Below, piece after piece: positions 10,915-64,000 of a stretch of DNA of 64,000 bases. The stretch is from Escherichia phage vB_EcoM_PTE-Eco05, in sequence record PQ306573.1. One strand, 5' to 3'. The notes beneath the pieces were generated by a model. The model worked only from the letters and a program-made list of their open reading frames with translations. It was not told the DNA's origin and ran no database searches. Positions within the stretch are counted from its first letter, which is position 1. Each line of letters begins with the position of its first letter. The translations under genes and the position numbers were made by a program.

Positions 10915-11472
10915 ATGAAATTTTTAAAATATGTAAGTTGGGTTGTTCTTGTTCCTATAGATTGGATCGCAGCGATTTTAGCAATTATTCTAGCACCATT
11001 TGTAGTTCCATTCCATAGTGAAAAAACCGGTAAACTACCTTATGGCTTTGACTGGATGATGACTTACGATAATCCTATCGATGGTGACCGCGGCCATGTT
11101 GAACGTTGGTCTAAAATACGTAAAATTCCTGTTATAGGTAAATATGCTCAACGCGTAGCTTGGCTATGGCGCAACAAAGCATATAATTTTTCGTATCATG
11201 TTTTAGGTCGCGAAGCTTCATCAGAATGGCACTATAAAGGCAACGCCGAAACTAAATCTGGATCTCCTGATCCGGCACATCATGGATATCTTTTAGTTTG
11301 GAACGAGTCGGCATGGGGATTATTCGCTGCTATACCTTATCTTAAGGTTGGTGGTATTACATTTTATCTGCGTGTTTACTGTGGTTGGAAACTTAAGAGT
11401 CTTTTGAGTCGTCCTATTCCACGCGCAATGCTTTCATTCCATATCAACCCTTTACGATATTACAAAAACTAA
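10915..11472 (+). CDS. membrane protein
   Basis: 185 aa; hydrophobic N-terminus. Confidence 0.55.
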   Translation: MKFLKYVSWVVLVPIDWIAAILAIILAPFVVPFHSEKTGKLPYGFDWMMTYDNPIDGDRGHVERWSKIRKIPVIGKYAQRVAWLWRNKAYNFSYHVLGREASSEWHYKGNAETKSGSPDPAHHGYLLVWNESAWGLFAAIPYLKVGGITFYLRVYCGWKLKSLLSRPIPRAMLSFHINPLRYYKN

Positions 11473-11474
11473 TC

Positions 11475-11507
11475 AAAGCCCCTTCCGAAAGGTTGGGGCT
11501 TTTTTGC
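11475..11507 (+). terminator. rho-independent terminator (GNRA-loop hairpin plus T-run)
   Basis: AAAGCCCCTTCCGAAAGGTTGGGGCTTTTTTG. Confidence 0.55.
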
Positions 11508-11571
11508 ATTTAGCAGTTTACTTCTCCTCAGGTTGTGTTATAGTAGACCTTACTTACTAGAGGAGAACGTT

Positions 11572-11751
11572 ATGTCACGTAAAGAAAAAATTTCTAAGTT
11601 AATGTTTTTGATTGAAGAGTACGCTAACGCTGTATCCGATTGGGAAAATGCTCATGGTTGCGAAGATGGAGACATCGACATTAACAGAGCTATGAAAAAG
11701 ATGGCTGATACGCACACCGAATTACAAATGTATGTTAACGAGATTATGTGA
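11572..11751 (+). CDS. hypothetical protein
   Basis: ATG 11572 with GAGGAG RBS; early-promoter-like GTTTAC at 11516. Confidence 0.45.
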   Translation: MSRKEKISKLMFLIEEYANAVSDWENAHGCEDGDIDINRAMKKMADTHTELQMYVNEIM

Positions 11752-11758
11752 GGATATT

Positions 11759-11965
11759 ATGCTTTACGATTATACTGGAAAATCCGAAGATGGTGTACTT
11801 GAACTTTTACCTGAAAGCGTTGAAGATGATGATACGGTGGTGATGTTTTGTAAAAATGGTCCTGGGGATAAGGGATGGATTTATCTTCGCCAAGAAAATG
11901 ACCTAATTGTTTTGGACCCTAAACAAGTTGAAGAACTTTATCAACATTTAAAACACAATCGGTAG
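11759..11965 (+). CDS. hypothetical protein
   Basis: ATG 11759 after GAGGA; the track's longer ORF starts at 11732. Confidence 0.45.
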   Translation: MLYDYTGKSEDGVLELLPESVEDDDTVVMFCKNGPGDKGWIYLRQENDLIVLDPKQVEELYQHLKHNR

Positions 11966-12244
11966 TTTACATCTTGATAGGACTATGGTATAGTAGTCCT
12001 ACCAAAACAAATGGAGAACAAAATGAAACTTTTGCTTATCGCTTATGTTGTAGTACAATATAATTATCCGATGTTTACTTATAACATGGTAAACGGCATA
12101 GTGAATCTTATTGAAACGAGTATGGTAAAATGACCTGTGAACAAGCTAATAAATTGATGGATATTATTTAATTTTATAGAAATCAGGTTGATGCGTGCCA
12201 GAATGCTTTGGTGAATTTTGTTGAAACTTTAATTGGTGAATAAT

Positions 12245-12778
12245 ATGAAAACTGTAATTGAAACAACCGAGTTGTTTGGTGATTTATGTATCGAAAAACG
12301 TGGTTATGTGTATGTTCTGACACAAGAAGATGATGCTGCTACTATTCTTCCTATGGAACTGGATAAGATTTTAAAACTCAATCCGTCTGGACGTCGTCGA
12401 GAGGTAATTAACATTGGTGAAGACCTCCAAGTTCGTTTTTATCCTGGTCTTTACAACGCGGCCAATATCGAAACTGAAGACGAATGTTTTTCTATTAATA
12501 ATTGGAAAACATTCGTCACTAAGGTGAAAGAATTAATGGAATCTGAAACAGCCAAAAAGGCCAAACTTCAATGGGCTAAATGCCGTAATGCTTTTATTAC
12601 AAATCAGGACCGCCCTGACTATACAACAGTCCTGGGAGTTAATCCTTCTTATGAAGACGGTGATGTCGTAGTTATTCGCCAAATTGATGACCTTCGTCAA
12701 CATATCATTACATTAGACAAAGATGAAGCAGTTGCTCTTAAAGCTTATCTCGATTCTATTATCCCAACTTTGAAATAA
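12245..12778 (+). CDS. hypothetical protein
   Basis: in-frame ATG 12245; track ORF begins at a TTG at 12233. Confidence 0.55.
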   Translation: MKTVIETTELFGDLCIEKRGYVYVLTQEDDAATILPMELDKILKLNPSGRRREVINIGEDLQVRFYPGLYNAANIETEDECFSINNWKTFVTKVKELMESETAKKAKLQWAKCRNAFITNQDRPDYTTVLGVNPSYEDGDVVVIRQIDDLRQHIITLDKDEAVALKAYLDSIIPTLK

Positions 12779-12787
12779 GGAATTATT

Positions 12788-13261
12788 ATGATTATCAATG
12801 AAAACTCTTGGCATTTTAAAATTTATGCCGCGTTCAATAGTACACGGAATCGCCCGAAAACGTTGTGTGCTTATTTTTGGAAAACGTTAATCCCGGTATT
12901 GTCTGTTTCAATTATTGGATTTGCGATTTTAGCAGCAGTCATAATCATTGGCCAGGAAATTTTAACTAAATTCTTTGTTTTTAGCAGTCTATGGACATTA
13001 GTTCCAGCCTCAATTGGTGTAGGCATTTTAATGGTAGCAGTCATGGCTTTTATTGCTGCTGGGTTGGTAATTGGTCCGTCTTGGTTGTTAGACAAATATA
13101 ACGACAGAAAATATTATAAAGAAATTGAGCTCATTGCACAAAACCAAGAACGAATTAAAAATGGACTGGAGCCTATTGAACGTAAGAAATCATTAATAGG
13201 CGAATACCTTAAAGCTCGTAAAGAAAAAGTCTGTCCTACTCTTGAATATAAGGCTAAATGA
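12788..13261 (+). CDS. membrane protein
   Basis: 157 aa with long hydrophobic segments. Confidence 0.55.
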   Translation: MIINENSWHFKIYAAFNSTRNRPKTLCAYFWKTLIPVLSVSIIGFAILAAVIIIGQEILTKFFVFSSLWTLVPASIGVGILMVAVMAFIAAGLVIGPSWLLDKYNDRKYYKEIELIAQNQERIKNGLEPIERKKSLIGEYLKARKEKVCPTLEYKAK

Positions 13262-34580: not shown

Positions 34581-37292
34581 ATGAAAGAATTTTACTTAAC
34601 GGTTGAACAGATTGGTGATTCAATTTTTGAACGTTACATCGATTCTAATGGCCGTGAACGTACTCGTGAAGTAGAATATAAACCATCACTGTTTGCTCAT
34701 TGTCCAGAAAGTCAGGCTACGAAATATTTCGATATCTACGGTAAGCCGTGTACTCGTAAGTTGTTCGCTAATATGCGTGCTGCCTCCCAATGGATTAAAC
34801 GCATGGAAGATATCGGACTTGAAGCACTTGGCATGGACGATTTCAAATTGGCGTATTTGACTGACACTTATAACTATGAAATCAAATACGACCATACAAA
34901 AATTCGTGTGGCTAACTTCGACATCGAAGTAACATCTCCGGACGGGTTCCCTGAGCCGTCACAAGCAAAACATCCGATTGATGCTATCACCCATTATGAC
35001 TCAATTGACGACAGGTTCTACGTATTTGATCTATTGAATTCTCCATATGGTAATGTAGAAGAATGGTCTATTGAAATCGCTGCTAAGCTTCAAGAACAAG
35101 GCGGTGATGAAGTTCCATCCGAAATTATCGATAAAATCATTTATATGCCGTTCGATAACGAAAAAGAATTGTTGATGGAATATCTCAACTTCTGGCAACA
35201 GAAAACTCCTGTCATTTTGACTGGATGGAACGTTGAGTCATTTGATATTCCATATGTGTATAACCGAATCAAGAATATTTTTGGCGAATCTACTGCGAAA
35301 CGTTTATCACCACATCGTAAAACTCGTGTTAAAGTTATCGAAAACATGTATGGTTCTCGTGAAATCATTACATTGTTCGGTATCTCTGTTCTTGATTACA
35401 TTGACCTTTACAAAAAATTCTCTTTTACCAATCAACCGTCGTATTCTCTGGATTACATTTCAGAATTTGAATTGAACGTCGGTAAACTGAAATACGACGG
35501 CCCTATTTCTAAGCTTCGTGAAAGCAATCACCAACGATATATTTCTTATAACATTATCGACGTGTATCGTGTATTGCAAATTGATGCTAAGCGTCAGTTC
35601 ATCAACTTGAGTTTGGACATGGGTTATTATGCTAAGATACAGATTCAATCTGTGTTTAGCCCAATTAAAACATGGGATGCTATTATCTTTAATAGCCTTA
35701 AAGAGCAGAACAAGGTGATTCCACAAGGTCGTTCTCACCCGGTTCAACCTTATCCTGGCGCTTTTGTTAAGGAACCTATTCCAAATCGATACAAATATGT
35801 AATGAGTTTCGACCTTACATCTCTGTATCCAAGTATTATTCGCCAAGTGAATATTAGCCCGGAAACAATAGCAGGAACGTTTAAAGTAGCTCCACTGCAT
35901 GATTATATTAACGCAATCGCTGAACGTCCTTCAGATGTGTACAGTTGTTCTCCTAACGGCATGATGTATTATAAAGACCGTGATGGTGTAGTTCCAACTG
36001 AAATCACTAAGGTCTTTAATCAACGTAAAGAACATAAAGGTTACATGCTTGCAGCTCAACGTAATGGTGAAATAATTAAAGAGGCCTTACATAATCCTAA
36101 TCTTTCTGTTGACGAACCATTAGATGTTGATTATCGTTTCGACTTCAGTGATGAGATTAAAGAAAAGATTAAAAAGTTGTCTGCTAAATCTCTTAATGAA
36201 ATGTTGTTTAGAGCTCAACGTACTGAAGTTGCAGGTATGACTGCACAGATTAACCGTAAATTGCTCATCAACTCACTTTATGGTGCACTCGGCAACGTTT
36301 GGTTCCGTTATTACGATTTGCGTAATGCTACTGCAATCACAACATTTGGTCAAATGGCTTTACAGTGGATTGAACGTAAAGTTAATGAATATCTGAATGA
36401 AGTTTGTGGTACAGAAGGTGAAGCTTTCGTTCTTTATGGTGATACAGACTCTATTTACGTATCTGCTGATAAAATTATCGATAAGGTTGGTGAATCTAAA
36501 TTCCGTGATACCAACCATTGGGTAGACTTCTTAGATAAGTTTGCACGTGAACGTATGGAACCAGCTATTGATAGAGGTTTCCGTGAAATGTGTGAATACA
36601 TGAACAATAAACAACACTTAATGTTCATGGACCGAGAAGCTATCGCTGGGCCTCCGCTTGGTTCTAAAGGTATTGGCGGATTTTGGACTGGTAAGAAACG
36701 TTATGCATTAAACGTGTGGGATATGGAAGGTACTCGTTACGCTGAGCCTAAACTCAAAATCATGGGTCTAGAGACTCAGAAATCTTCGACTCCTAAAGCA
36801 GTACAGAAAGCTCTTAAAGAATGTATTCGTCGTATGCTTCAAGAAGGTGAAGAATCATTACAAGAATATTTTAAAGAGTTTGAAAAAGAATTCCGTCAAT
36901 TGAATTATATTAGCATCGCGTCGGTATCTTCTGCGAATAACATTGCTAAATACGACGTAGGTGGATTCCCGGGTCCTAAATGCCCGTTCCATATTCGTGG
37001 AATTCTGACGTATAACCGAGCTATCAAAGGTAATATTGATGCACCACAAGTTGTAGAAGGTGAAAAAGTATATGTTCTGCCTTTACGTGAAGGAAACCCA
37101 TTCGGTGATAAATGTATCGCATGGCCTTCTGGTACTGAAATCACAGATTTAATTAAAGACGATGTACTTCATTGGATGGACTACACTGTTCTCCTTGAGA
37201 AGACATTTATTAAACCGCTTGAAGGATTCACATCAGCAGCTAAACTCGATTACGAGAAGAAAGCATCTCTGTTCGATATGTTTGATTTTTGA
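34581..37292 (+). CDS. 43: DNA polymerase (family B)
   Basis: 903 aa; exonuclease and polymerase motifs (FDIE, YGDTDS, KILINSLYG) close to T4 gp43. Confidence 0.97.
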   Translation: MKEFYLTVEQIGDSIFERYIDSNGRERTREVEYKPSLFAHCPESQATKYFDIYGKPCTRKLFANMRAASQWIKRMEDIGLEALGMDDFKLAYLTDTYNYEIKYDHTKIRVANFDIEVTSPDGFPEPSQAKHPIDAITHYDSIDDRFYVFDLLNSPYGNVEEWSIEIAAKLQEQGGDEVPSEIIDKIIYMPFDNEKELLMEYLNFWQQKTPVILTGWNVESFDIPYVYNRIKNIFGESTAKRLSPHRKTRVKVIENMYGSREIITLFGISVLDYIDLYKKFSFTNQPSYSLDYISEFELNVGKLKYDGPISKLRESNHQRYISYNIIDVYRVLQIDAKRQFINLSLDMGYYAKIQIQSVFSPIKTWDAIIFNSLKEQNKVIPQGRSHPVQPYPGAFVKEPIPNRYKYVMSFDLTSLYPSIIRQVNISPETIAGTFKVAPLHDYINAIAERPSDVYSCSPNGMMYYKDRDGVVPTEITKVFNQRKEHKGYMLAAQRNGEIIKEALHNPNLSVDEPLDVDYRFDFSDEIKEKIKKLSAKSLNEMLFRAQRTEVAGMTAQINRKLLINSLYGALGNVWFRYYDLRNATAITTFGQMALQWIERKVNEYLNEVCGTEGEAFVLYGDTDSIYVSADKIIDKVGESKFRDTNHWVDFLDKFARERMEPAIDRGFREMCEYMNNKQHLMFMDREAIAGPPLGSKGIGGFWTGKKRYALNVWDMEGTRYAEPKLKIMGLETQKSSTPKAVQKALKECIRRMLQEGEESLQEYFKEFEKEFRQLNYISIASVSSANNIAKYDVGGFPGPKCPFHIRGILTYNRAIKGNIDAPQVVEGEKVYVLPLREGNPFGDKCIAWPSGTEITDLIKDDVLHWMDYTVLLEKTFIKPLEGFTSAAKLDYEKKASLFDMFDF

Positions 37293-37332
37293 TATAATGC
37301 CAAGGACGGCCAACTAATTAAATGAGAGAAAT

Positions 37333-37968
37333 ATGAAAACTACACCAATCACTATCGCTATTGACGCAATCGTAAAACAAGCTTCATCTCTTGCCACTAT
37401 GGCTAAAGTAATTAGTCAAAACCCTGCTCGGTATAATGCTATTCTTGAAACTCTTCGTCGCCCTGGACTGAGTAATTATGAAAGTCGTGTAATTATTACA
37501 GGTGTTGGTAAGAACGCTAATATCGCAACTAAAGCTTCCGAGACTTTTGCTTCACTAGGTATTCCTAGCATGTATTTGAACACTGGGCATTATTCTCATG
37601 GTGACGCAGGATTTATTGCACCTAATGATGTATTAGTTCACATCAGCCGTTCTGGTAAGACTGAAGAAATGATAGGTGTTGCTAAACATCTTCGTATGAT
37701 TCGTCCTCAGGTTAAACAGATTCTGTTACATTGTAACCCTGACATTCCACAAGAATACGAAGCTCTTTTTGATTATACGTTCTGTACTGGTATCGCGGTA
37801 GAAGTTGACGAGAACTCTTTAGCTCCGACAATGTCTACTACATTGTTGTTAGCGCTTATCGATACGTTCGCTATCAACCTTTCGTCTGAACGTGGATTTA
37901 CCTCTAATGATTTCCTTAAGTTCCATCCAGGCGGTGCACTAGGTGCCATGTTACGAGGCGAACAATGA
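37333..37968 (+). CDS. SIS-domain sugar-phosphate isomerase, KdsD/GutQ-like arabinose-5-phosphate isomerase
   Basis: ITGVGKNANIATKASETFASLGIPS...HGDAGFIAPNDVLVHISRSGKTEE...LAPTMSTTLLLALID...HPGGALG matches API SIS motifs; no CBS domains. Confidence 0.8.
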   Translation: MKTTPITIAIDAIVKQASSLATMAKVISQNPARYNAILETLRRPGLSNYESRVIITGVGKNANIATKASETFASLGIPSMYLNTGHYSHGDAGFIAPNDVLVHISRSGKTEEMIGVAKHLRMIRPQVKQILLHCNPDIPQEYEALFDYTFCTGIAVEVDENSLAPTMSTTLLLALIDTFAINLSSERGFTSNDFLKFHPGGALGAMLRGEQ

Positions 37969-38107
37969 AAGCAATATCAATAGGACTTTTACTATTGATG
38001 CTTGTCATGACTATCTACTGGAGCTTAACGGCTCCAGTAATGATTCCAACACTTGTAATTGGATGGATTATGATTGGACTACAAGCAAAGTATGAATGCT
38101 TTAACTA
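37965..38107 (+). CDS. small hydrophobic membrane peptide (47 aa)
   Basis: ATGA overlap with upstream stop; MKAISIGLLLLMLVMTIYW... Confidence 0.35.
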
Positions 38108-38149
38108 GAATAGTGTACAATACTCCTACTTACCAATGAGGACTTCAAC

Positions 38150-39835
38150 ATGAAAAAAGCTGTTATTCTTGGTGCTGGACTGGCAACTCGTTTGTATCCA
38201 ATAACGCATCATATTCCTAAGGTGCTTGTTAACTATAAACAAGACACTATTCTGAGCAATTTGTATACAATTTATTCTGACCTTGGCGCAGATGAAATTA
38301 TTGTAGTAGTTCATTCAAAATTTGCTGAAACTGTTCGAGCTTATTGTGAGCAAGAAGGGTTCAATGTGACTATTCGTACAGTTGATGAAGCGTATGGTTC
38401 TGCTTATGCTCTTGCTAAATTACACAAAGATTTAGACGGCCATAATGTAATTGTTAACTGGTGTGATATTATTCCCGATTTTGGTTCATGGTCTTGGAAT
38501 GTTAACGCAATCTATGTTAAGGGTGATGAATGTCGGTATAATTTCGATGGTGAAAATATCACTAATGTAGGTGAAACAGGCGGTAATGTTGTAGGAATTT
38601 ATCAGTTCAAAGACTGGGAATTCTATATGGGTTCTACCGATGAGGAAATTCATGAATACTGCAAAGGACGTGATTTCGTAGAATTCCTTTACGGCAGCAC
38701 ATTCAATAAATCAGAGCTTATGAATCTAATTGATTTAGGTGATATGCCTAAACTTGAAAAGGCCCATGAAGTTCGTGAACTGAACCGTAGTTTTAATGCA
38801 GTTGAAATTGGCGAAGAAACTGTAACTAAATTCGCATTAACCGAACAGGGTCGAGCTCTTCAGAAAGATGAGATTTCGTGGTATTTGAAAGTGAAATCAG
38901 ATTCAGTTCCTCAGTTAGTTTCTGTTAATGAAAATAACTTTGAAATGGAACGCATTAAAGGTAAGCCGGCATTTGAATATATTAAATCAAAATCAAGTCT
39001 TGCTCGTCCACAAATTATTGATGCAATTTTAGATGCACTGAAATTCAGCACAGACACTTATTTTGTAAGTCCTGAAACTGTTCGTCGTGATTTCACTAAA
39101 GAATTCTATACGAAAGTTATTGATCGTTGTGAAAGCATTCAACCATTGATTGATTCATTTGGTAAAATCACACATGTGAACTACACTAAGATTGGACGTC
39201 TGAAGCCAATGCTGAAACAAGCTTTAGAACACCTTATTCGTTATCATAACCGTTCTCAGGGACAGTACTCTGTTATTCATGGTGACCCGAACTTCAGTAA
39301 TACTATGATTACTGATAACGGCGAAGTCAAGTTTATCGACCCTCGTGGATATTTTGGCGAAACCAAGATTTACGGGCCAAAATTGTATGATGAAGCTAAA
39401 GTGCTTTACGCTGTTTCAGGTTATGATGAATTCAATGCTAATCCGACCTGGGGACAGTTTACTATTGATGAAACAACTTGTAATGTGACTATTAACATCA
39501 ATCCATTAGTTTACAAATATGGAAAGATGAGTTCGTTTAACGAGTATCATCATTTGGCAGTGGCAATTATCTGGATTGCATTAGGTGGTTATTTCAAGAA
39601 TAATCCACTTAAAGCGGTAGCCGCATATTATAAAGGTATGGAACTTCTGACTAAGCAATTACGTAATATGGGCCGTGTACTTCAAGACGGCTCTATTAGT
39701 TATGACGTAGCAGAACCTGTAACGGCTACTCTGATTACAAAAAATCCTGGTAAATGGGTACTAACTGATAAAGAAACTGGTGTTTCCTATCGTCCAATCG
39801 GTGGCGATATCACTCATCAATGGGAACGAATCTAA
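38150..39835 (+). CDS. bifunctional NDP-sugar pyrophosphorylase / sugar kinase fusion
   Basis: N-terminal AVILGAGLATRLYPITHHIPKVLV nucleotidyltransferase motif; C-terminal IHGDPNFSNTMI and FIDPRGYFG resemble APH/choline-kinase-fold motifs. Confidence 0.75.
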   Translation: MKKAVILGAGLATRLYPITHHIPKVLVNYKQDTILSNLYTIYSDLGADEIIVVVHSKFAETVRAYCEQEGFNVTIRTVDEAYGSAYALAKLHKDLDGHNVIVNWCDIIPDFGSWSWNVNAIYVKGDECRYNFDGENITNVGETGGNVVGIYQFKDWEFYMGSTDEEIHEYCKGRDFVEFLYGSTFNKSELMNLIDLGDMPKLEKAHEVRELNRSFNAVEIGEETVTKFALTEQGRALQKDEISWYLKVKSDSVPQLVSVNENNFEMERIKGKPAFEYIKSKSSLARPQIIDAILDALKFSTDTYFVSPETVRRDFTKEFYTKVIDRCESIQPLIDSFGKITHVNYTKIGRLKPMLKQALEHLIRYHNRSQGQYSVIHGDPNFSNTMITDNGEVKFIDPRGYFGETKIYGPKLYDEAKVLYAVSGYDEFNANPTWGQFTIDETTCNVTININPLVYKYGKMSSFNEYHHLAVAIIWIALGGYFKNNPLKAVAAYYKGMELLTKQLRNMGRVLQDGSISYDVAEPVTATLITKNPGKWVLTDKETGVSYRPIGGDITHQWERI

Positions 39836-40221
39836 TGCACCGTGTAGAAAACATGCTTAATCTTTGTTTTGATGTCGATGATTGTATAACAGAGTGGAAT
39901 AACAATCGTGATTACGTGAACTTCAAACCAGACGTCGAAATGGTGTCTGCCATTAATGCTCTGTATGATGCAGGGCATACCATAACGCTTTACACTGCTC
40001 GCGGTATGAAGTCAGTAGGTCCTGGTCGTATAGCAATTGACATTCTCCCAAGTCTGATTCAGAACTTGGCAAACATTGGCTTGAAGTACCATAATTTGCT
40101 AACACATAAACCAGTATATGATTGGATTATCGACGACAAAGCTATGCGTCCTGACGAATTCAAAGCTCTTATGAATAAAGGCGAATTCGAAACATTTAAA
40201 TCGTATAAACCGAATCTATAA
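39835..40221 (+). CDS. HAD-superfamily phosphatase-like protein
   Basis: FDVDDCIT near N-terminus (HAD motif I-like), later TARG and WIIDD. Confidence 0.55.
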   Translation: MHRVENMLNLCFDVDDCITEWNNNRDYVNFKPDVEMVSAINALYDAGHTITLYTARGMKSVGPGRIAIDILPSLIQNLANIGLKYHNLLTHKPVYDWIIDDKAMRPDEFKALMNKGEFETFKSYKPNL

Positions 40222-40269
40222 TAATTTAAGTAAGACCTGCAAAAAAACCATCGCATCAATTAACGCGAG

Positions 40270-41439
40270 ATGCAAAAAATGAATACTTTTAAAATCGGAA
40301 CGAATTTTGATTTAGCTCTTCTTGATAAAATCGTAGAGCTCAATAAAACTTATCCTAATAGCTTGATAAATGAAGTATACGGCTCTACAAGAGAAATGGC
40401 TTTTGTAGCAGCCAGACCTGATTTTAGGCTTCCTGACGTTGACAAAAAGATGTTAGAAGATTACGTTAAACGTTGTAACGAATTAGGTATTTGCTTTAAC
40501 TATACACTCAACACGATAAATCCTGGTTCAAAAAGAGAACTAGTTGAGTGGAAGAAGAAAGCTATTCAGGATTATGTTCAGTATCTTTGGTCAATAGGCG
40601 TATGGCGTATTACTATCGCTAACCCTGTTGTTATGGAAATTGTTCGTGAAGTCAATAAAGACATTGAGATTGAAGTTTCAACAATTCTACATGTCGATGC
40701 TGTAACTCAAATCAAATACTTGCATGACCAGTATAATATCAAAAAGGTCTGCTGTGGAATTCATAAGAACCGTTCAGTTTCTTTCCTGAAGCGTGCAGCA
40801 GAGTTTTGCAATAAGAACAATATAATATTTGAAGTTCTTGTAAATGAGTTCTGTTCTAATGCTGGTAAAGGGTATACAACACATTGTAGCTATCGTGACT
40901 CTTGCTATATTTTCCATAGTACTGATGTTACAGCTGATGATGCTAAATCCTTAAACGGATATCCTATGCAGCACTGTATTAAAGCTCGTGATACAGACCC
41001 ATTTAACTGGTTGAGAACTCGTTTTGTTCGTCCTCAAGATTTGAAACTTTATAATGATATTGGTATCACTCAATTCAAAGTTTCAGGACGTACAGGTAGC
41101 ACAGACTACATTTTGAAAGTTCTTGAAGCATACGCTTCTGAAAAGTTTGAAGGTAATTTGTTAGAACTGTGGAAGCCTTTAGAGACTATTTTCACTCTTG
41201 AAAACGAAACTGAGTTTTCACATACAGTAAATATTGAAACCTCTTTGTTAGATGGCTTTTTAGAAAAAAGGTGGTTCAGACATCCAGATTTCGATTGTGC
41301 TAATGAAATCTGCGGGACGACGTGTACATATTGTGAAAGATATTATAAACGTCAATTATCTAAAAACGGGTTAGCAGAAAACTCTATATCTATTATTGAT
41401 ATAACTAACTCTGATGACGCTTTGAGGTACCCGGAATGA
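40270..41439 (+). CDS. Cys-rich hypothetical protein of the sugar/modification cluster
   Basis: 389 aa; NEFCSNAGKGYTTHCSYRDSCY and C-terminal CANEICGTTCTYCERYY. Confidence 0.55.
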   Translation: MQKMNTFKIGTNFDLALLDKIVELNKTYPNSLINEVYGSTREMAFVAARPDFRLPDVDKKMLEDYVKRCNELGICFNYTLNTINPGSKRELVEWKKKAIQDYVQYLWSIGVWRITIANPVVMEIVREVNKDIEIEVSTILHVDAVTQIKYLHDQYNIKKVCCGIHKNRSVSFLKRAAEFCNKNNIIFEVLVNEFCSNAGKGYTTHCSYRDSCYIFHSTDVTADDAKSLNGYPMQHCIKARDTDPFNWLRTRFVRPQDLKLYNDIGITQFKVSGRTGSTDYILKVLEAYASEKFEGNLLELWKPLETIFTLENETEFSHTVNIETSLLDGFLEKRWFRHPDFDCANEICGTTCTYCERYYKRQLSKNGLAENSISIIDITNSDDALRYPE

Positions 41440-41675
41440 TTTCTAGAAAAACTTTTAACCACCAACTTAATGAAGAGATTTTGACTATGAAACTGAACAC
41501 TAACGAACAAATTCTTAAAAGGGCCCTGATGGGCCTGTTTGAAACTAAAGCGGCTAAAGTGATTAAAGAACCTGTTCAATTGGAATACTACGCTGATGCA
41601 TTTCTTCATAGTGTTCTTGGAAGTATCGGTGCTGAAGCTTTACGTTATATCAACATTGTCAAGAAATTCAAATAA
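41436..41675 (+). CDS. hypothetical protein
   Basis: 79-aa ORF. Confidence 0.45.
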   Translation: MISRKTFNHQLNEEILTMKLNTNEQILKRALMGLFETKAAKVIKEPVQLEYYADAFLHSVLGSIGAEALRYINIVKKFK

Positions 41676-41717
41676 GCTTTACGAATTGAGTATATAATAA
41701 ATTGTATTGAGGTAAAC

Positions 41718-42434
41718 ATGGGAAAACATAACACAATGAAATATATCAAAGCCGCAGATTTTCAAGCCGCATTTAAAGCAGTCAATCGTGAAATTTTAGA
41801 AAACCCGGAATTCGTAACTGATTCTCGTATTGGACGTTGTAATGAAATTGGGTCTATGACAGTAGTTGTTGACACTCCATCATCATTCAAAATGACCGAC
41901 CCACGTATTAACCGCATCTCTTATGAATATGCCGAAGACTTCTGGAAGTTTATGATTTCTGGTGGTACCAACGCAGAAGAAGCGTTTAAGGCATATCCTA
42001 ATGTCGCTAAATTTATTTCTAAACCAAAATCAGATGTTTTGCCGGCGAACTTCAACACTTTCTATGGTCCTCGCATTGCGGCCCAATTACCAGCTCTTCT
42101 AAAAGAACTTAAAGAGAAGCCTAACTCTCGAAGAGTTGTGTTCCAAATTCTAGAAAGTTCTGATCAGGCTTTGCTTGATTCAGACGAAACGCTTGAATAT
42201 CCATGTACTGACTCAGTGACTTATTATATCCGTGATGGTAAGCTTTATACCCACTGTCATATGCGTTCTCAGAACTGCGCTGTTGTTATGCAGTTGGATT
42301 TTTATCTCCAAGGAAAATTACTTCATTATATCGCTAACGAATGCGGTGTAGAAGTTGGTGATTATACTCATACCATGGTAAGTGCCCATGTGTTTGAACG
42401 TGATTTTGATTATGTTAAAGGATTCCTTGACTAA
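41718..42434 (+). CDS. thymidylate-synthase-fold pyrimidine hydroxymethylase (divergent dCMP hydroxymethylase-like)
   Basis: NSRRVVFQIL and YPCTDSVTYYIRDGKL...MRSQNCAVVMQLDFY align with TS/CH core motifs incl. catalytic Cys; same position as T4 gene 42. Confidence 0.65.
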   Translation: MGKHNTMKYIKAADFQAAFKAVNREILENPEFVTDSRIGRCNEIGSMTVVVDTPSSFKMTDPRINRISYEYAEDFWKFMISGGTNAEEAFKAYPNVAKFISKPKSDVLPANFNTFYGPRIAAQLPALLKELKEKPNSRRVVFQILESSDQALLDSDETLEYPCTDSVTYYIRDGKLYTHCHMRSQNCAVVMQLDFYLQGKLLHYIANECGVEVGDYTHTMVSAHVFERDFDYVKGFLD

Positions 42435-43333
42435 TGGCTATTTTCCGCGTACCAATCTTGAGTATGCGGTCTTATGAAACTGGACAGTATGCTATCCTTA
42501 AGGATGGCAACTTCCAACTTCATTTGCACCGTGCTAATCCGGGTGATGTGATTACATATCCACGTAATGCATCTGATATTAAAGAATGCGAACGTCTTTT
42601 TCCAGAATTTAAGTTTGTTCCATTATGGTATAAAGATAACGCGTATAACACTCGTAAATATTTCTGGTCTGAAAATGAATTTGTGGTTGATTCATTAATT
42701 GCTTATTATGATTGTGATTTTCTAATCACAGATATCACTGGATATGACGGCGCTTTTGATGTGGAATTCAATTTCAATATCACTGCAGACCCTAATAAAC
42801 CACGTTTTTATATTGACGAATTCTTAAAAACTGATATGTTGTCGGTTAATCGTTCACTTCAAACTACTGTGTTGAATGAACGTCAAAAAGAAGTGCTGGT
42901 TAACGCAGGTGCAGATGGTAATAAGATTATCGTAACGCAGAAAGTTATACGTCCTTCCATCATGCAGCGTCTTGTAGGTGATTTGGCTCCTATTTATCTA
43001 GATGGTATTTTTCATCCATTTCGAATTAGTGACCCGTGCTATCGTTTTGAACAAGTGGTTGAATGTGCAATTCAATTAGGCCAACCGCTTTATATAACCG
43101 ATCCAAATAATAGCTTCGACAGAAATAAGTATCCTGAAGAAGCGCTGATTCGAATTTTTAAACCAACTAAAACAGAGTACTATCAAATTCTTAAAGGGCG
43201 TCCTAAAATTCAATATTTCGAAAATCCTGAAGAAGTATTCCATCCAGGTCTTGGTGAGTTCATCTACTTTAATGCTTTAATTTCTTCGCCGTATAATATA
43301 CCTAAATATGAAGATGTCGTAATCGAGGAATAA
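42434..43333 (+). CDS. hypothetical protein (candidate DNA sugar transferase by context only)
   Basis: 299-aa ORF between hydroxymethylase and kinase; no motif recognised. Confidence 0.5.
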   Translation: MAIFRVPILSMRSYETGQYAILKDGNFQLHLHRANPGDVITYPRNASDIKECERLFPEFKFVPLWYKDNAYNTRKYFWSENEFVVDSLIAYYDCDFLITDITGYDGAFDVEFNFNITADPNKPRFYIDEFLKTDMLSVNRSLQTTVLNERQKEVLVNAGADGNKIIVTQKVIRPSIMQRLVGDLAPIYLDGIFHPFRISDPCYRFEQVVECAIQLGQPLYITDPNNSFDRNKYPEEALIRIFKPTKTEYYQILKGRPKIQYFENPEEVFHPGLGEFIYFNALISSPYNIPKYEDVVIEE

Positions 43334-43334
43334 A

Positions 43335-43883
43335 ATGGCTAAAATTATTTTAGTAGATGGCCCAGATAATGCTGGTAAAACAACTTTCATTAATGACATA
43401 ATGGAAATTAGTGAAAGATATGTAAAGATTGATTTCCCTAAACGAACAGTTGATGGGCGTTTCGATGTTAAGTCTCGAAATGAAGTTGGCTGCTTCGAAA
43501 CGATGTTGAATTATTTAGACCCTACTAAGATTTATCTGTTAGACCGTGGATATATTAGTAACTGGGTTTATGGACGTATTCGACAAGATGCGGACTCGGT
43601 TCTTGACGTTTATGAACAGGATTATGTTCGTCTTTGCCAAAACCATGATGTGTTCACAATTATTTTAACACGTAACGAAATGACTGAAAGTTTTGAAGAC
43701 GACCTTATTACTTTGTCCTCATTCGGTTTTAATACAGTCATTTCACATTTTGAAGAGTTTGCAATTCATAACAAAATCCAAACGTATCAATTACTTAATC
43801 ATGATGGTGCTAACAAAGTTATAGGATTTAATGCAAGCGAACGTAATTATTTGATTACAGAAATTATCAAATGGGCTCGTTAA
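43335..43883 (+). CDS. P-loop nucleoside-monophosphate kinase-like protein
   Basis: ILVDGPDNAGKTT Walker A and LLDRGYIS (thymidylate-kinase DR-like). Confidence 0.6.
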   Translation: MAKIILVDGPDNAGKTTFINDIMEISERYVKIDFPKRTVDGRFDVKSRNEVGCFETMLNYLDPTKIYLLDRGYISNWVYGRIRQDADSVLDVYEQDYVRLCQNHDVFTIILTRNEMTESFEDDLITLSSFGFNTVISHFEEFAIHNKIQTYQLLNHDGANKVIGFNASERNYLITEIIKWAR

Positions 43884-43981
43884 GAGCCATTTAAAGTTTT
43901 AAATGCTGTATAACCCTTAGTATATAATCATCTTATCTTTTAAACATGAGTAAAATATAATGATGCCTATGGAAAAATACA

Positions 43982-45154
43982 ATGTCTGATTTAAAATCTC
44001 GTCTGATTAAAGCTTCTACTTCTAAAATGACTGCAGACTTGACTAAGTCTAAGCTGTTTAATAATCGTGATGAAGTCCCTACTCGTATTCCGATGTTGAA
44101 TATTGCACTAGGTGGTGCACTGAATGCCGGGTTGCAATCAGGCTTAACTATTTTTGCTGCTCCTTCTAAACACTTTAAAACATTGTTTGGGCTGACCATG
44201 GTTGCAGCATATATGAAGAAATATAAAGATGCAATCTGTTTGTTTTATGACTCAGAATTCGGTGCTTCAGAATCTTATTTTCGTTCAATGGGTGTTGATT
44301 TAGACCGTGTAGTTCATACTCCGATTCAATCTGTCGAACAACTTAAAGTTGATATGACTAATCAGCTTGACGCGATTGAACGCGGTGATAAAGTTATTAT
44401 CTTTATCGATTCAATCGGTAATACTGCATCTAAGAAAGAAACCGAAGATGCGTTGAACGAGAAAGTTGTAGGTGATATGTCTCGTGCTAAGGCACTTAAA
44501 TCTCTGTTCCGCATTGTGACTCCTTATCTGACTATTAAAGATATTCCATGTGTTGCAATCAACCATACAGCAATGGAAATCGGCGGATTGTATCCTAAAG
44601 AGATTATGGGCGGTGGTACCGGTATTCTTTATTCTGCCAACACGGTATTTTTTATCTCTAAACGTCAGGTTAAAGAAGGTACAGAATTGACCGGTTATGA
44701 CTTCACGTTGAAAGCAGAAAAATCTCGTACAGTTAAAGAGAAATCTACTTTCCCAATCACGGTTAATTTTGATGGCGGTATTGACCCATTCAGTGGCTTG
44801 TTAGAAATGGCAACTGAAATTGGATTTGTTGTTAAGCCTAAAGCCGGTTGGTATGCTCGCGAATTCCTTGACGAAGAAACAGGTGAAATGATTCGTGAAG
44901 AAAAATCATGGCGTGCTAAAGCTACTGATTGTGTAGAATTCTGGGGACCTTTGTTTAAACACAAACCTTTCCGAGATGCAATTGAAACTAAATATAAACT
45001 AGGTGCTATCTCTTCTATTAAAGAAGTTGATGACGCTGTTAACGACCTTATTAATTGCAAAGCAACAACTAAAGTTCCGGTTAAAACTTCTGATGCTCCG
45101 TCTGCAGCAGATATAGAAAACGACCTTGACGAAATGGAAGATTTCGATGAATAA
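43982..45154 (+). CDS. uvsX: RecA-like recombinase
   Basis: 390 aa close to T4 UvsX (Walker A region, acidic C-terminus). Confidence 0.95.
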   Translation: MSDLKSRLIKASTSKMTADLTKSKLFNNRDEVPTRIPMLNIALGGALNAGLQSGLTIFAAPSKHFKTLFGLTMVAAYMKKYKDAICLFYDSEFGASESYFRSMGVDLDRVVHTPIQSVEQLKVDMTNQLDAIERGDKVIIFIDSIGNTASKKETEDALNEKVVGDMSRAKALKSLFRIVTPYLTIKDIPCVAINHTAMEIGGLYPKEIMGGGTGILYSANTVFFISKRQVKEGTELTGYDFTLKAEKSRTVKEKSTFPITVNFDGGIDPFSGLLEMATEIGFVVKPKAGWYAREFLDEETGEMIREEKSWRAKATDCVEFWGPLFKHKPFRDAIETKYKLGAISSIKEVDDAVNDLINCKATTKVPVKTSDAPSAADIENDLDEMEDFDE

Positions 45155-51662: not shown

Positions 51663-51751
51663 AATATCTCCTTAGTTACCTATTATTTATTACGCTTTAT
51701 AAAATTAATGTTAGAATTAAACTCTCTTATACTGAATTGAAAGGAAAAATA

Positions 51752-52273
51752 ATGGCGCACTTTAACGAATGTTCACAACTTATTTCTGGTGTTGATAAAG
51801 CAGAAGAAGCTTATTTTAATGCTCTGATTCACGAAGATAAAGACCCACTGCAGGTAATGCTTGATATGCAGAAATCTTTACAGGTTCGTCTGGCAAATGA
51901 CAAGCCTGAACATAACAAACATCCTGATGAATTAGCTACCGCCGGTGATGTTGTTGATTGGCTGCGTAATCAGAAAGATTATATTGATGATGAATTCCGT
52001 GAACTGCTGACTTCACTTGGCGGTATGAGCAATGGTGAAAAAGCTGCCAGCAGTGTATGGAAGCCATGGAAAGCACAACATGCTGAATATCGTAATCGTC
52101 GTATCGATGAACTGTCTCCTGAAGACCAGCTCGAAATTAAATTCGAAATGATTGATATTCTGCACTTCGTTCTGAACATGTTCCAAGGTCTGGGTCTTTC
52201 TGCTGAAGAAATCTTTAAACTGTATTACCTGAAAAACCAACACAACTTTGAACGCCAGGATAATGGTTACTGA
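51752..52273 (+). CDS. 56: dCTP pyrophosphatase (MazG-like)
   Basis: MAHFNEC...LQVMLDMQ...LEIKFEMIDILHFVLNMF close to T4 gp56. Confidence 0.9.
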   Translation: MAHFNECSQLISGVDKAEEAYFNALIHEDKDPLQVMLDMQKSLQVRLANDKPEHNKHPDELATAGDVVDWLRNQKDYIDDEFRELLTSLGGMSNGEKAASSVWKPWKAQHAEYRNRRIDELSPEDQLEIKFEMIDILHFVLNMFQGLGLSAEEIFKLYYLKNQHNFERQDNGY

Positions 52274-61506: not shown

Positions 61507-63324
61507 ATGATTAAAAATGAAATTAAGGTATTGTCAGATGTAGAACATATTAAGAAACGTAGTGGTATGTATATTGGTTCTTCTGCTAAAGAAGCACATG
61601 AGCGTTTTTTGTTTGGTAAATATCAACAAGTTGAATATGTTCCTGGTCTGGTTAAATTAATCGATGAGATTATTGACAACTCGGTTGATGAAGCTATTCG
61701 TACATCATTTAAGTTTGCAAATAAAATTGATGTGCAAATTAAAAATAATCAAGTTTCGGTGGAAGATAACGGACGTGGTATTCCTCAAGGTTTAGTTACC
61801 GACCAAACAGGTGAACAAATTCCTGGGCCTGTAGCAGCCTGGACTATTCCAAAGGCTGGTGGTAACTTTGGTGATGATTCTGAACGCAAGACTGGTGGTA
61901 TGAACGGCGTCGGGAGTAGTTTAACTAATATCTTCTCTACGTTGTTTACAGGCATCACGTCAGATGGCGAAAATGAAATCACTGTTAACTGTTCAAACGG
62001 AATGGAAAACAAATCATGGTCTTCTAAGAAATCTAAAGGTAAAGGCACTAAAGTAATCTTCACTCCTGATTTCACTTCATTTGAAGAGCATAATTTATCT
62101 CAAATTTATTTAGATATTACTTTAGACCGACTTCAAACATTGGCAGTCGTTTATCCTGATATCAAGTTCACATTTAATGGTAAAAAGGTTGATGGTAATT
62201 TTAAACGATTTGCTAAACAATTTGGTGAAGATAACATCATTCAAGAAAATGATAAAGTCTCTATAGCATTCACAACATCACCCGATGGCTTCCGTCATTT
62301 AACTTATGTGAATAACATCCATACTAAAAATGGTGGTCATCATGTTGAATGTGTAATGGATGATATCTGCGAACATCTTTTACCGGGTATTAAAAAGAAA
62401 TATAAGGGTATTGAAGTCACTAAAGCTCGTGTTAAAGAATGCCTCACAATGTTGATGTTTATTAGAGACATGAGCAACATGCGTTTTGATTCTCAGACTA
62501 AAGAACGTTTAACGTCAACGTATGGTGATATTCGTAATCATATCCAATTAGATGCTAAAAAAATTGCTCAGGCACTTCTTAAAAACGAAGCCTTGATTAT
62601 GCCTATTGTTGAAGCAGCATTAGCTCGTAAATTGGCAGCAGAAAAGGCTGCAGAAACTAAAGCAGCTAAAAAGGCAACTAAAGCTAAGGTTCATAAGCAT
62701 ATTAAAGCTAACCAATGTGGTAAAGATGCAGATACGACATTGTTCTTAACAGAAGGTGATTCTGCAATTGGTTATCTCATTGATGTTCGTGACCGTGAAC
62801 TACACGGTGGATTCCCATTACGTGGTAAGGTGATGAATAGCTGGGGTATGTCATATGCTGATATGATGAAGAACAAAGAGCTCTTCGATATCTGTGCTAT
62901 CACAGGTCTTATTCTTGGTGAAAAGGCAGAGAATACGAACTATCGTAATATTGCAATTATGACCGATGCCGATCACGACGGTCTTGGAAGTATTTATCCT
63001 GCTTTGCTTGCTTTCTTTAGTAATTGGCCCGAATTGTTTGAACAAGGACGTATTCGCTTTGTTAAAACACCTGTAATTATTGCACAAATTGGCAAAACTC
63101 AAAAATGGTTTTATACTGTAGCTGAGTATGAAGAAGTTAAAGATACACTGCCTAAGCATAGTATTCGATACATCAAGGGATTAGGCTCCCTTGAAAAGTC
63201 AGAGTATCGTGAAATGATTCAGAACCCTGTGTACGACGTAGTTAAACTTCCTGAAAATTGGAAAGAACTCTTTGAAATGTTGTTGGGTGATGATTCAGAA
63301 CTTCGTAAAGAATGGATGTCCTAA
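61507..63324 (+). CDS. 39: DNA topoisomerase II large (ATPase) subunit, uninterrupted
   Basis: 605 aa colinear with T4 gp39 plus gp60 region. Confidence 0.93.
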   Translation: MIKNEIKVLSDVEHIKKRSGMYIGSSAKEAHERFLFGKYQQVEYVPGLVKLIDEIIDNSVDEAIRTSFKFANKIDVQIKNNQVSVEDNGRGIPQGLVTDQTGEQIPGPVAAWTIPKAGGNFGDDSERKTGGMNGVGSSLTNIFSTLFTGITSDGENEITVNCSNGMENKSWSSKKSKGKGTKVIFTPDFTSFEEHNLSQIYLDITLDRLQTLAVVYPDIKFTFNGKKVDGNFKRFAKQFGEDNIIQENDKVSIAFTTSPDGFRHLTYVNNIHTKNGGHHVECVMDDICEHLLPGIKKKYKGIEVTKARVKECLTMLMFIRDMSNMRFDSQTKERLTSTYGDIRNHIQLDAKKIAQALLKNEALIMPIVEAALARKLAAEKAAETKAAKKATKAKVHKHIKANQCGKDADTTLFLTEGDSAIGYLIDVRDRELHGGFPLRGKVMNSWGMSYADMMKNKELFDICAITGLILGEKAENTNYRNIAIMTDADHDGLGSIYPALLAFFSNWPELFEQGRIRFVKTPVIIAQIGKTQKWFYTVAEYEEVKDTLPKHSIRYIKGLGSLEKSEYREMIQNPVYDVVKLPENWKELFEMLLGDDSELRKEWMS

Positions 63325-63366: not shown

Positions 63367-64000
63367 ATGAAAGTTATGTTTATCCCATCTCGCGCAGTCC
63401 CATTTAACCCAGAACGTGTACAAGGTGGTCTTGAAGCAGTACATTTAAATGTGTTGAAATATTTAGTTTCTATCGGTGCCGATATTGATTATATTGGTTT
63501 TGATAATGACACGTTTGGTGACTGGAAAGTTAATCATCATCCTGTTGGTCATCTGACTAAATTCAGTCTAGGTATGAGTTATACTATGGCTCGTAAGATT
63601 GTTGAACTAGCCGGCATTAATGAGTACGATTTCGTTGTTACAATGGAACCGACCAAACTAACCGTTCAGGCAATTAAAGACGCAGGTCTCTCTAAAGTTC
63701 ATAAGAATTTTATGGCAACACCATTTGAACCAGTATCTCGTGGCATTGTTCAAATTTGGGACCAGACTATTCAAATTCGTAAGAACGGTGGTAAGAGTTA
63801 TGCTCCTACTAAAGCCTTCCGTGAATTTGAACGCAAATATTGTTATATGACTTCAGGTCTGACTGACAAAATTGATTATGATTATTGGCGAGCAAATCCG
63901 TTGTTTGAAACCGAAGATTATCCGGTTATTTGTTTGAATGAGAAACCTGAAGTTCTTCCGGCGACTGATCTGATTATTAGTGCACAACGTTATGACACTA
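63367..64000 (+). CDS. 3'-truncated ORF, possibly glycosyltransferase-like (tentative)
   Basis: open frame to window end; N-terminus MKVMFIPSRAVPFNPERVQGGLEAVHLNVLKYL loosely resembles GT-B N-terminal domain; not rIIA-like. Confidence 0.4.
   Translation, partial: MKVMFIPSRAVPFNPERVQGGLEAVHLNVLKYLVSIGADIDYIGFDNDTFGDWKVNHHPVGHLTKFSLGMSYTMARKIVELAGINEYDFVVTMEPTKLTVQAIKDAGLSKVHKNFMATPFEPVSRGIVQIWDQTIQIRKNGGKSYAPTKAFREFERKYCYMTSGLTDKIDYDYWRANPLFETEDYPVICLNEKPEVLPATDLIISAQRYDT

Follow-up and report, generated by a model that had tools for sequence, protein, structure and literature searches.

What DNA modification is encoded by the block of + strand genes (37333-43883) that is flanked by gene 43 (34581-37292) and uvsX (43982-45154) in Escherichia phage vB_EcoM_PTE-Eco05 (record PQ306573.1, of which a stretch of 64,000 nucleotides, here called the window, was analysed)? 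An original prediction, made from the sequence alone, proposed that seven contiguous + strand genes replace the T4 genes of this interval and form a DNA hypermodification system in which an NDP-arabinose donor, derived from ribulose-5-phosphate (Ru5P), is transferred onto a modified cytosine. Its account of the T4 interval was correct (T4 has 43 - imm.1 - imm - 42 - beta-gt - segA - uvsX there), the general theme agrees with published work (PMC6024577, PMC13326640) and all seven genes were found where it placed them, but the block comprises nine open reading frames (ORFs), two short ones of 47 and 79 amino acids (aa) having been missed. Judging from its sequence, the block is almost certainly the arabinosyl-5-hydroxycytosine (ara-5hoC) DNA hypermodification cluster of Mosigvirus, the same as RB69 gp45-gp55 and HY126 Afh. 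Both the system and its phage-borne donor pathway are already published, so that the statement that a complete pathway of this kind was not established is outdated and the main value of the finding as stated lies in correct annotation. The features concerned, including two which lie outside the block, are as follows:

37333..37968, + strand: arabinose-5-phosphate isomerase (RB69 gp55), SIS domain only, converting Ru5P to arabinose-5-phosphate (Ara5P); from domain, phrog and identity.
37965..38108, + strand: 47-aa hydrophobic ORF (RB69 gp54 equivalent), overlapping the isomerase stop codon.
38150..39835, + strand: bifunctional AfhE-like kinase/nucleotidyltransferase (RB69 gp52:53); from domains and HY126 identity.
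39820..40221, + strand: AfhF-like HAD phosphatase (RB69 gp51); from NCBIfam, PDB 9IQW and HY126 identity.
40270..41439, + strand: U32-family Fe-S protein, 389 aa, Cys-rich (RB69 gp50); from Peptidase_U32.
41436..41675, + strand: 79-aa ORF (RB69 gp49), Mosigvirus only, without Pfam or NCBIfam match.
41718..42434, + strand: 5-hydroxy-dCMP (5hodCMP) synthase with thymidylate synthase (TS) fold (RB69 gp48); from PDB 9IQC/9IR2/9IQU and signature residues.
42434..43333, + strand: arabinosyltransferase 1 (GT1), GT-B fold, 299 aa (RB69 gp46:47).
43335..43883, + strand: thymidylate-kinase-like (TMK-like) P-loop kinase (RB69 gp45); from phrog_761 and a P-loop match.
51737..52273, + strand: dCTPase-like NTP pyrophosphohydrolase (gp56/RB69p028 equivalent), outside the block; from phrog_173.
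63367..64000, + strand: arabinosyltransferase 2 (GT2; RB69 ORF003c/gp3 equivalent), N-terminal 211 aa, the ORF leaving the window; from 9IQZ/9IR0.

The closest match to the 6.5-kb block was Shigella phage JK45 (99.2% identity), and since 151 phage records span at least 80% of the block and 153 match it at 95% identity or above, the block is no chance feature. The top matches listed for it are Mosigvirus (RB69-like), to which the window belongs, and the record of the BASEL phage Bas46 annotates the matching genes as "involved in UDP-arabinose biosynthesis". The arabinose modification block is reportedly characterised in Mahler 2025 and He 2026. When compared with the RB69/HY126/Bas46/Bas47 cluster, the window showed the same genes in the same order and at the same gene 43-uvsX position, the same D169N substitution in the TS homolog and both transferases, at 96-100% identity. 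Identities to the HY126 and RB69 proteins were, respectively, 97.6% and 96.7% for the isomerase, 96.4% and about 99% for the kinase/nucleotidyltransferase, 100% and 99.2% for the HAD phosphatase, 99.7% and 99.5% for the U32 protein, 97.9% and 98.7% for the TS homolog, 99.0% and about 99% for GT1, and 98.4% and 98.9% for the TMK-like kinase. The differences are few: the RB69 reference record splits the nucleotidyltransferase/kinase and GT1 through sequencing errors, while both are intact in the window, and the 79-aa ORF is split in HY126 (L017:5661-5899, where L numbers designate the comparison loci) and intact here, nothing substantive differing otherwise. Base composition of the block equals that of its flanks, and gene junctions of -16, -4, -1 and +1 nt fit co-expression of the genes; promoter and terminator scans of 37000-44200 gave no enrichment over shuffled sequence (20 vs 27.2 and 5 vs 4.0, respectively). 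Annotations of the cluster in GenBank and PHROGs are widely wrong or empty: 'dCMP hydroxymethylase' or 'thymidylate synthase' stands for the hydroxylase, 'phosphoheptose isomerase' for the phosphatase, 'bifunctional protein GlmU' for the kinase/nucleotidyltransferase and 'peptidase/collagenase' for the U32 protein, and both transferases are entered as 'hypothetical'.

The acceptor base is decided by the product of 41718-42434, a Thymidylat_synt domain protein which matches PDB 9IQC/9IR2/9IQU from end to end at ~98% identity and which the original prediction had called a divergent hydroxymethylase providing hydroxymethylcytosine (hmC). Alignment with E. coli ThyA and T4 gp42 placed its residues E160, C163, N186 and D194 at ThyA positions 143 (L143E), 146 (C146), 169 (D169N) and 177 (N177D), respectively, whereas T4 gp42 retains D169. 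The D169N change is diagnostic of 5hodCMP synthases (Lee 2026, PMC13326640), and the Asn at ThyA position 169 therefore marks the window protein as a hydroxylase, not a hydroxymethylase, with 5-hydroxycytosine (5hoC) as the acceptor and an ether link to the sugar. The assignment to arabinosyl-hydroxymethylcytosine (ara-hmC) does have a precedent, for Thomas 2018 (PMC6024577), reporting arabinose in RB69 DNA, named the base ara-hmC, took ORF003c as a candidate transferase and suggested that UDP-arabinose probably comes from a module of eight genes lying between the polymerase gene and uvsX. Against it, RB69 gp48, which is 98.7% identical to the window enzyme, carries bound flavin and converts dCMP to 5hodCMP with oxygen from O2, as followed by 18O2 labelling, and nuclear magnetic resonance (NMR) and mass spectrometry (MS) put the arabinose of the RB69 base directly on O5 of 5-hydroxycytosine (Lee 2026, PMC13326640); in another Mosigvirus (NP), mono- and di-arabinosyl-dC were found and the earlier hydroxymethyl assignment was called erroneous (Durham collection paper). 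For RB69, the ara-hmC version is already refuted.

TS-type hydroxylases occur in 404 phage records, 63 of them from Acinetobacter phages and 22 from Rhizobium phages. The nucleotide supply around the enzyme is represented by two further genes, the kinase at 43335-43883 (phrog_761 'thymidylate kinase', E 2e-45, with a weak dTMP-kinase P-loop match) and the dCTPase-like ORF at 51737-52273 (phrog_173 'nucleoside triphosphate pyrophosphohydrolase', E 2e-45), which comes after the primase gene, a position at which Shewanella phage Thanatos-1 has an annotated dCTP pyrophosphatase; the pathway role of the dCTPase is to supply dCMP and remove dCTP (Lee 2026, PMC13326640, Table 1). In the sampled phage lineages the TMK-like kinase travels with GT1 and a hydroxylase, its homologs adjoining GT1 in DLP3, L020, L021, L023 and L024 and more distant TMK-like genes standing beside GT1 in L015, L016, L018, L019, L025 and L026. 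A Flavodoxin_2-family gene accompanies TS(D169N) in 4/4 jumbo-phage GT1 contexts (L020:1978-2523, L021:8739-9293, L023:2605-3123 and L024:8715-9275) and, in L021 and L024, directly precedes the TS gene; its product may be a flavin reductase dedicated to the flavin-dependent 5hodCMP synthase. In the window, no Flavodoxin_2-type flavin reductase was found.

Profile searches upheld the family calls made for the sugar branch and the kinase (SIS/KpsF-GutQ isomerase, NTP_transferase with APH-like kinase, HAD-IIIA/EcbF phosphatase and TMK-like P-loop protein), and the set for a UDP-arabinofuranose (UDP-Araf) donor (SIS isomerase, bifunctional kinase/nucleotidyltransferase and HAD phosphatase) is complete in the window. 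The isomerase matched Pfam SIS (39 bits) and phrog_5670 'arabinose 5-phosphate isomerase' (E 2e-116), its NCBIfam scores for KpsF/GutQ (110.7 bits) and KdsD (105 bits) both staying below the full-length cut-offs because the protein has no CBS domains. In the 38150-39835 protein, NTP_transferase covers residues 3-99 and weak APH/fructosamine-kinase/EcKL matches lie at 308-409, with additional matches to NCBIfam sugar-1-P nucleotidyltransferases, while the HAD-IIIA phosphatase matched the NCBIfam EcbF-BcbF capsule phosphatase (49 bits) and PDB 9IQW (E 8e-88). Two orders of the donor steps are on record. According to the HY126 biochemistry of He 2026, as relayed in the text of Lee 2026 (PMC13326640), the AfhE kinase domain converts Ara5P to arabinose-1,5-bisphosphate (Ara-1,5-P2), AfhF strips the 5-phosphate to leave arabinose-1-phosphate (Ara-1-P) and the AfhE nucleotidyltransferase makes UDP-Araf from it. 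The same paper's Table 1 instead has the entries 'dephosphorylates Araf5P to Ara' and 'phosphorylates Ara to Araf1P', which is the order of the original prediction, running through free arabinose (phosphatase, then anomeric kinase). With AfhE acting on Ara5P and AfhF on the bisphosphate in that relayed account, and with Asn in place of the gp42 Asp at ThyA 169, we give hardly any credence to a block that makes ara-hmC with a divergent dCMP hydroxymethylase and a donor formed via free arabinose.

The 47-aa ORF within this part of the block gave a full-length match to phrog_3610 (E 1e-26) and is also present in HY126, RB69, Bas46 and Erwinia phage Virsaitis27 (60% identity). It is strongly hydrophobic, a putative small membrane protein within a cytosolic nucleotide-sugar cluster.

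The 299-aa product of 42434-43333, taken for an orphan by the original prediction, is a GT-B fold glycosyltransferase, the first arabinosyltransferase, and would, as proposed, attach the first arabinose in alpha linkage to 5-hydroxycytosine, the order of the two transferases being our inference. The claim that the window contains no glucosyltransferase homolog stood at the plain sequence level, at which no homolog of the T4-type alpha- or beta-glucosyltransferase was detected in the window, but it overlooked both this GT-B ORF and the ORF starting with ATG at 63367 (211 aa visible), which is about 96% identical to PDB 9IQZ/9IR0, 'phage HY126 glycosyltransferase' (E 7e-140; phrog_8302). The latter sits beyond a 605-aa ORF (61507-63324) that is probably the topoisomerase gene; a second arabinosyltransferase has been placed beyond the topoisomerase gene (Durham collection paper), and RB69 gp46:47 and gp3 have been described as GT-B transferases (Lee 2026, PMC13326640).

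Taken together, the pathway in this phage would begin with the dCTPase (51737-52273) supplying dCMP, which the TS-fold enzyme (41718-42434) would hydroxylate at C5 with flavin and O2; phage kinases would phosphorylate 5hodCMP up to the triphosphate (the substrate of the TMK-like kinase of 43335-43883 being deduced), which the DNA polymerase would incorporate in place of dC. In the sugar branch, Ru5P would be converted to Ara5P by the isomerase (37333-37968), to Ara-1,5-P2 by the kinase domain of 38150-39835, to Ara-1-P by the HAD phosphatase (39820-40221) and to UDP-Araf by the nucleotidyltransferase domain of 38150-39835. The GT-B enzyme (42434-43333) would then attach the first arabinose to the 5-hydroxyl and the second transferase (63367 onward) another one, giving mono- and di-arabinosylated cytosine that would block restriction enzymes. 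Activities for the 5hodCMP synthase, AfhE and AfhF, and the DNA chemistry, have been demonstrated with proteins 96-100% identical to those of the window, the Afh work in the form relayed by Lee 2026. Four points count against this reconstruction: single transferases were inactive on 5hoC DNA in Lee 2026 (PMC13326640); that paper left undecided whether a mononucleotide or DNA accepts the first arabinose; the bisphosphate order comes by way of its text, at odds with its Table 1; and the assignment for PTE-Eco05 itself rests on identity to the studied phages.

The T4 glucosyl-hmC system (gp42, alpha-gt, beta-gt, gp56, gp1) occupies the same slot and is built on similar lines, with a dCTPase, a TS-fold enzyme acting on C5 of dCMP and a GT-B enzyme that glycosylates the new hydroxyl. 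It differs in using folate-dependent hydroxymethylation where the window has flavin and O2 hydroxylation, and glucose where the window sugar is arabinofuranose, the window lacking sequence homologs of alpha-gt and beta-gt; as the host does not make arabinofuranose, the phage carries its own donor pathway. Closer in content is the tri-arabinosyl-5hoC cluster of Acinetobacter phage DLP3 (gp76-gp83), which preserves the window's gene order, at 46-69% identity, for the isomerase, the kinase/nucleotidyltransferase, the HAD phosphatase, TS(D169N), GT1 and the TMK-like kinase. In DLP3, however, the HAD phosphatase is followed directly by the TS gene, with no U32 gene and no slot for a 79-aa ORF or chorismate mutase, and two extra glycosyltransferases adjoin the cluster.

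What, then, does the Cys-rich 389-aa protein at 40270-41439 contribute? It belongs to the U32 family (Peptidase_U32, 42.2 bits against a gathering cut-off of 22.4), its predicted model has a pLDDT of 93.8 and the best match among solved folds is the U32 TIM barrel 5D88. Nine Cys are invariant across 67 U32 homologs, including a C-terminal CX4CX3CX2C, and E188, C195 and C212 of the window protein align with RlhA E161, C169 and C176 (UbiU C169 and C176), E188 and C212 being invariant in 9/9 aligned sequences. Between C195 and C212 the phage subfamily carries an insertion of 10 residues that includes a Cys, and C236 of the window protein has a Cys counterpart in each of the four E. coli U32 proteins. 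These residues matter in the characterised enzymes: mutation of either Cys in RlhA abolished 5-hydroxycytidine (ho5C) and E161A nearly did so, while C176A in UbiU impaired cluster binding and abolished UbiU-V-dependent growth. None of the characterised U32 proteins is a protease, namely RlhA (ho5C2501 in 23S rRNA), TrhP (5-hydroxyuridine, ho5U34, in tRNA) and UbiU/UbiV (anaerobic ubiquinone hydroxylation); all are Fe-S-linked, O2-independent and prephenate-requiring, and for UbiU/V prephenate has been demonstrated as the oxygen donor.

We tentatively propose that the phage U32 protein might be a second pyrimidine C5 hydroxylase, O2-independent and prephenate-dependent, that acts on a deoxynucleotide or DNA, an assignment to which we give a little less than even weight. 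E. coli offers a parallel in TrhP and TrhO, which carry out prephenate-dependent and O2-dependent C5 hydroxylation side by side, as is proposed here for the U32 and TS-fold enzymes. The likeness to RlhA, TrhP, UbiU and UbiV consists of the U32 domain, the conserved Glu and three Cys and the proposed pyrimidine C5 hydroxylation chemistry, whereas the phage subfamily is distant, has its own Cys insertion and C-terminal Cys motif, and has a deoxynucleotide or DNA as its putative substrate, candidates being dCMP, dUMP, a triphosphate or DNA. Membership of the RlhA, TrhP or UbiU groups was considered and rejected as the profile HMM scores are too weak, the phage proteins forming a separate subfamily.

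A quite different view is implied by GenBank and PHROGs, in which the protein is annotated as a peptidase, and would make it a collagenase-like protease or, failing that, a functionless passenger. The 'peptidase' family name is historical, though, and nine invariant Cys do not suit that label, nor does conservation suit a passenger. Identity to the U32 protein of Thanatos-1 was 79%, with 44-72% for the remaining block proteins, and to that of Virsaitis27 83%, with 60-79% for the remaining block proteins and 79% for the DNA polymerase; U32 is thus the best conserved block protein across genera (79-83% when phages of E. coli, Erwinia and Shewanella are compared), and in the sole comparison available, that with the Erwinia phage, it is ahead of the DNA polymerase as well. 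A protease or passenger is accordingly very hard to believe.

The neighbouring gene provides a further pointer. In Erwinia, Klebsiella, Proteus and Shewanella phages the slot beside U32 is occupied by a type II chorismate mutase (CM_2, 34.7-46.8 bits against a cut-off of 27), whose residues are spaced in what we take to be the manner of the AroQ catalytic Arg/Arg/Lys/Glu/Ser/Gln. Chorismate mutase produces prephenate. By tblastn the gene was present in 54 phage records, all of genera that also bear U32, and in the rearranged cluster of Thanatos-1 U32 and chorismate mutase form an overlapping pair apart from the TS gene. In E. coli itself, prephenate is provided by PheA and TyrA.

The 79-aa ORF that fills this slot in the window had no match in Pfam or NCBIfam, and it was rejected as a chorismate mutase (no CM_2 match, BLASTP E 0.18, hhalign against phage chorismate mutases 0.1%). 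Its homologs are all from Mosigvirus (80-96% identity), are less conserved than their neighbours and are often truncated (47-58 aa); the ORF is probably dispensable and looks like a decaying gene or a replacement. A tblastn match to chorismate mutase elsewhere in the window (9327-9494, - strand, E 0.006) was dismissed as spurious because no ORF exists there and the plus strand codes for another gene.

The U32 gene was found in 221 phage records, all at 80% identity or more, the hosts listed being Escherichia, Klebsiella, Shigella, Serratia, Proteus, Yersinia, Enterobacter, Providencia, Edwardsiella, Erwinia, Pectobacterium and Shewanella. These host genera are facultative anaerobes. No Acinetobacter or Rhizobium phage was among the 221 records, although the TS enzyme is present in such phages, and both TS enzyme and U32 are carried only by phages of Enterobacterales and Shewanella. 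Beyond these records the subfamily extends to about 490 clusters (50% identity) at E <= 1e-30 and to 1,160 at E <= 1e-10.

Eight distant members (48-58% identity) were viewed in context on phage contigs of 14-466 kb, within +-10 kb (4-10 kb of flank). All eight lie in replication or nucleotide-metabolism modules (Pol III alpha, dUTPase, uracil-DNA glycosylase, dCMP deaminase, TMK-like kinases), and in 6/8 (L015, L016, L018, L019, L025 and L026) a GT1 homolog lies upstream of U32, with a TMK-like kinase further upstream, GT1 directly abutting or overlapping U32 in five of the six. No ThyA-type TS homolog, chorismate mutase or HAD phosphatase was seen within the 4-10 kb flanks of the eight. Four distant GT1 homologs (L020, L021, L023 and L024, on contigs of 122-356 kb), conversely, had TS(D169N), a TMK-like kinase and a Flavodoxin_2 protein alongside and no U32 nearby (0/4). 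GT1 and the kinase thus accompany one or the other of the two candidate hydroxylases.

These contexts also bear on the substrate. Both characterised U32 enzymes of nucleic acids use RNA, so that the phage protein might hydroxylate host or phage tRNA or rRNA in the manner of TrhP and RlhA, unrelated to DNA modification; yet it lacks the C-terminal extensions of RlhA and TrhP, its distant relatives all sit in dNTP/replication modules and six of these eight have the homolog of the DNA arabinosyltransferase GT1 overlapping, abutting or upstream, and we regard action on RNA as very unlikely. Somewhat less improbable, though still unlikely, is that U32 is a reductase or other tailoring enzyme acting on a sugar or heterocycle. 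This is how gp50 is labelled in its only appearance in Lee 2026 (PMC13326640), a Table 1 entry reading "sugar or heterocycle reductase"; the predicted TIM barrel is a fold common to many sugar enzymes, and in L015, where GT1 and U32 are separated by homologs of the isomerase (E 1e-20) and of the kinase/nucleotidyltransferase (E 2e-49), sugar genes come after U32. DLP3, on the other hand, makes the same UDP-Araf-derived arabinosylated 5hoC without a U32 gene, and L016, L019, L025 and L026 have U32, GT1 and kinase with no isomerase or nucleotidyltransferase/kinase homolog. Moreover, every characterised U32 enzyme is tied to hydroxylation, and the chorismate mutase linkage points to prephenate.

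Several observations weigh against the proposed hydroxylase role. The fourth Fe-S ligand could not be aligned, the phage protein being without the corresponding segment; in UbiU this ligand is reportedly C232 (Pelosi 2019), and by sequence the invariant C161 or C206 could stand in for it. The phage family profile scores TrhP, RlhA and UbiU at only 15, 9 and 7 bits, respectively, and the window protein reaches 18.4 bits with the NCBIfam UbiU model, whose cut-off is 440. The Mosigvirus of the window is without a chorismate mutase and has the 79-aa ORF in that slot, about 40 Escherichia phages carry the TS enzyme without U32, which makes U32 an accessory gene, the view of the metagenomic contigs is confined to the flanks given above, and the sugar genes after U32 in L015 (a DAHP_synth_1/KDO8PS-family gene and a NAD-dependent epimerase) fit a sugar role.

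Weighing these points, the motif, the chorismate mutase, the host range, the conservation and the displacement pattern make an anaerobic 5-hydroxy-pyrimidine synthase the simplest reading of U32. Beside the O2- and flavin-dependent TS-fold enzyme, such a synthase would give the phage 5hoC during anaerobic growth of the host; the adjoining chorismate mutase, in most genera, would secure the supply of prephenate, and in many uncultivated phages U32 would be the sole hydroxylase feeding a GT1-type glycosyltransferase. These phages destroy dCTP and are dependent on an O2-requiring hydroxylase, although the gut in which E. coli phages multiply is anoxic, a difficulty that an O2-free hydroxylase would resolve. 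The U32 gene and its link to chorismate mutase may be the only part of the system that is still new. The phage papers on modification that were covered, a set to which He 2026 and Mahler 2025 (either of which may address gp50) do not belong, contain no mention of U32, peptidase, chorismate or prephenate, and a literature search of the same scope returned no paper joining U32, prephenate, RlhA, TrhP or UbiU to phages. If the proposal is true, this would be the first U32 enzyme linked to DNA modification and the first viral use of prephenate as an oxygen donor, prephenate-dependent hydroxylation would reach beyond RNA and quinones to include DNA precursors, and some 500-1,200 phage protein clusters would become markers of 5-hydroxy-pyrimidine DNA modification, such markers being of importance for phage therapy, restriction and CRISPR resistance and the sequencing of modified DNA.

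Individual contexts of the distant U32 genes showed additional features. In the 80-kb contig L015, the genes following U32 (11145-12804) encode the DAHP_synth_1-family protein, which could be the shikimate-pathway entry enzyme or an Ara5P-using KDO8P synthase and so bears on the U32 hypothesis, and the NAD-dependent sugar epimerase. A radical-SAM/SPASM protein is encoded between the TMK-like kinase and GT1, upstream of U32, in L019 (7980-9011) and L025 (7972-9000), the two being 80% identical, which suggests an extra tailoring step in these phages. The U32 module of L018 (7777-8520, 11098-12000 and 15073-16179) includes a Gly_transf_sug protein, a weak TAGT-like glycosyltransferase and a UDP-galactopyranose mutase (GLF), hinting at a galactofuranose-containing 5-hydroxy-pyrimidine modification comparable to that of Rhizobium phage RL38J1. 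In two related megaphage-like contigs (L004:9175-9939 and L005:9080-9826), a dCMP deaminase gene comes before U32 and the gene of a conserved protein of ~250 aa without a family match comes after it, with no GT1, and the modification may differ there, for example as a 5-hydroxyuracil derivative.

Seg-like/GIY-YIG homing endonuclease genes occur in or beside the cluster in Virsaitis27 (L002:4352-4990), Proteus phage PM2 (L013:4932-5615) and Thanatos-1 (L012:8239-8892), paralleling segA in the T4 interval and marking the region as a hotspot for mobile endonucleases. Elsewhere in the window, a 164-aa ORF (9028-9522) matches phrog_335 ('phosphatase') and has a GAGVAG-type motif which, we presume, resembles that of a macrodomain; orphan antitoxin-like enzymes that counter DarTG have been reported from RB69-like phages.

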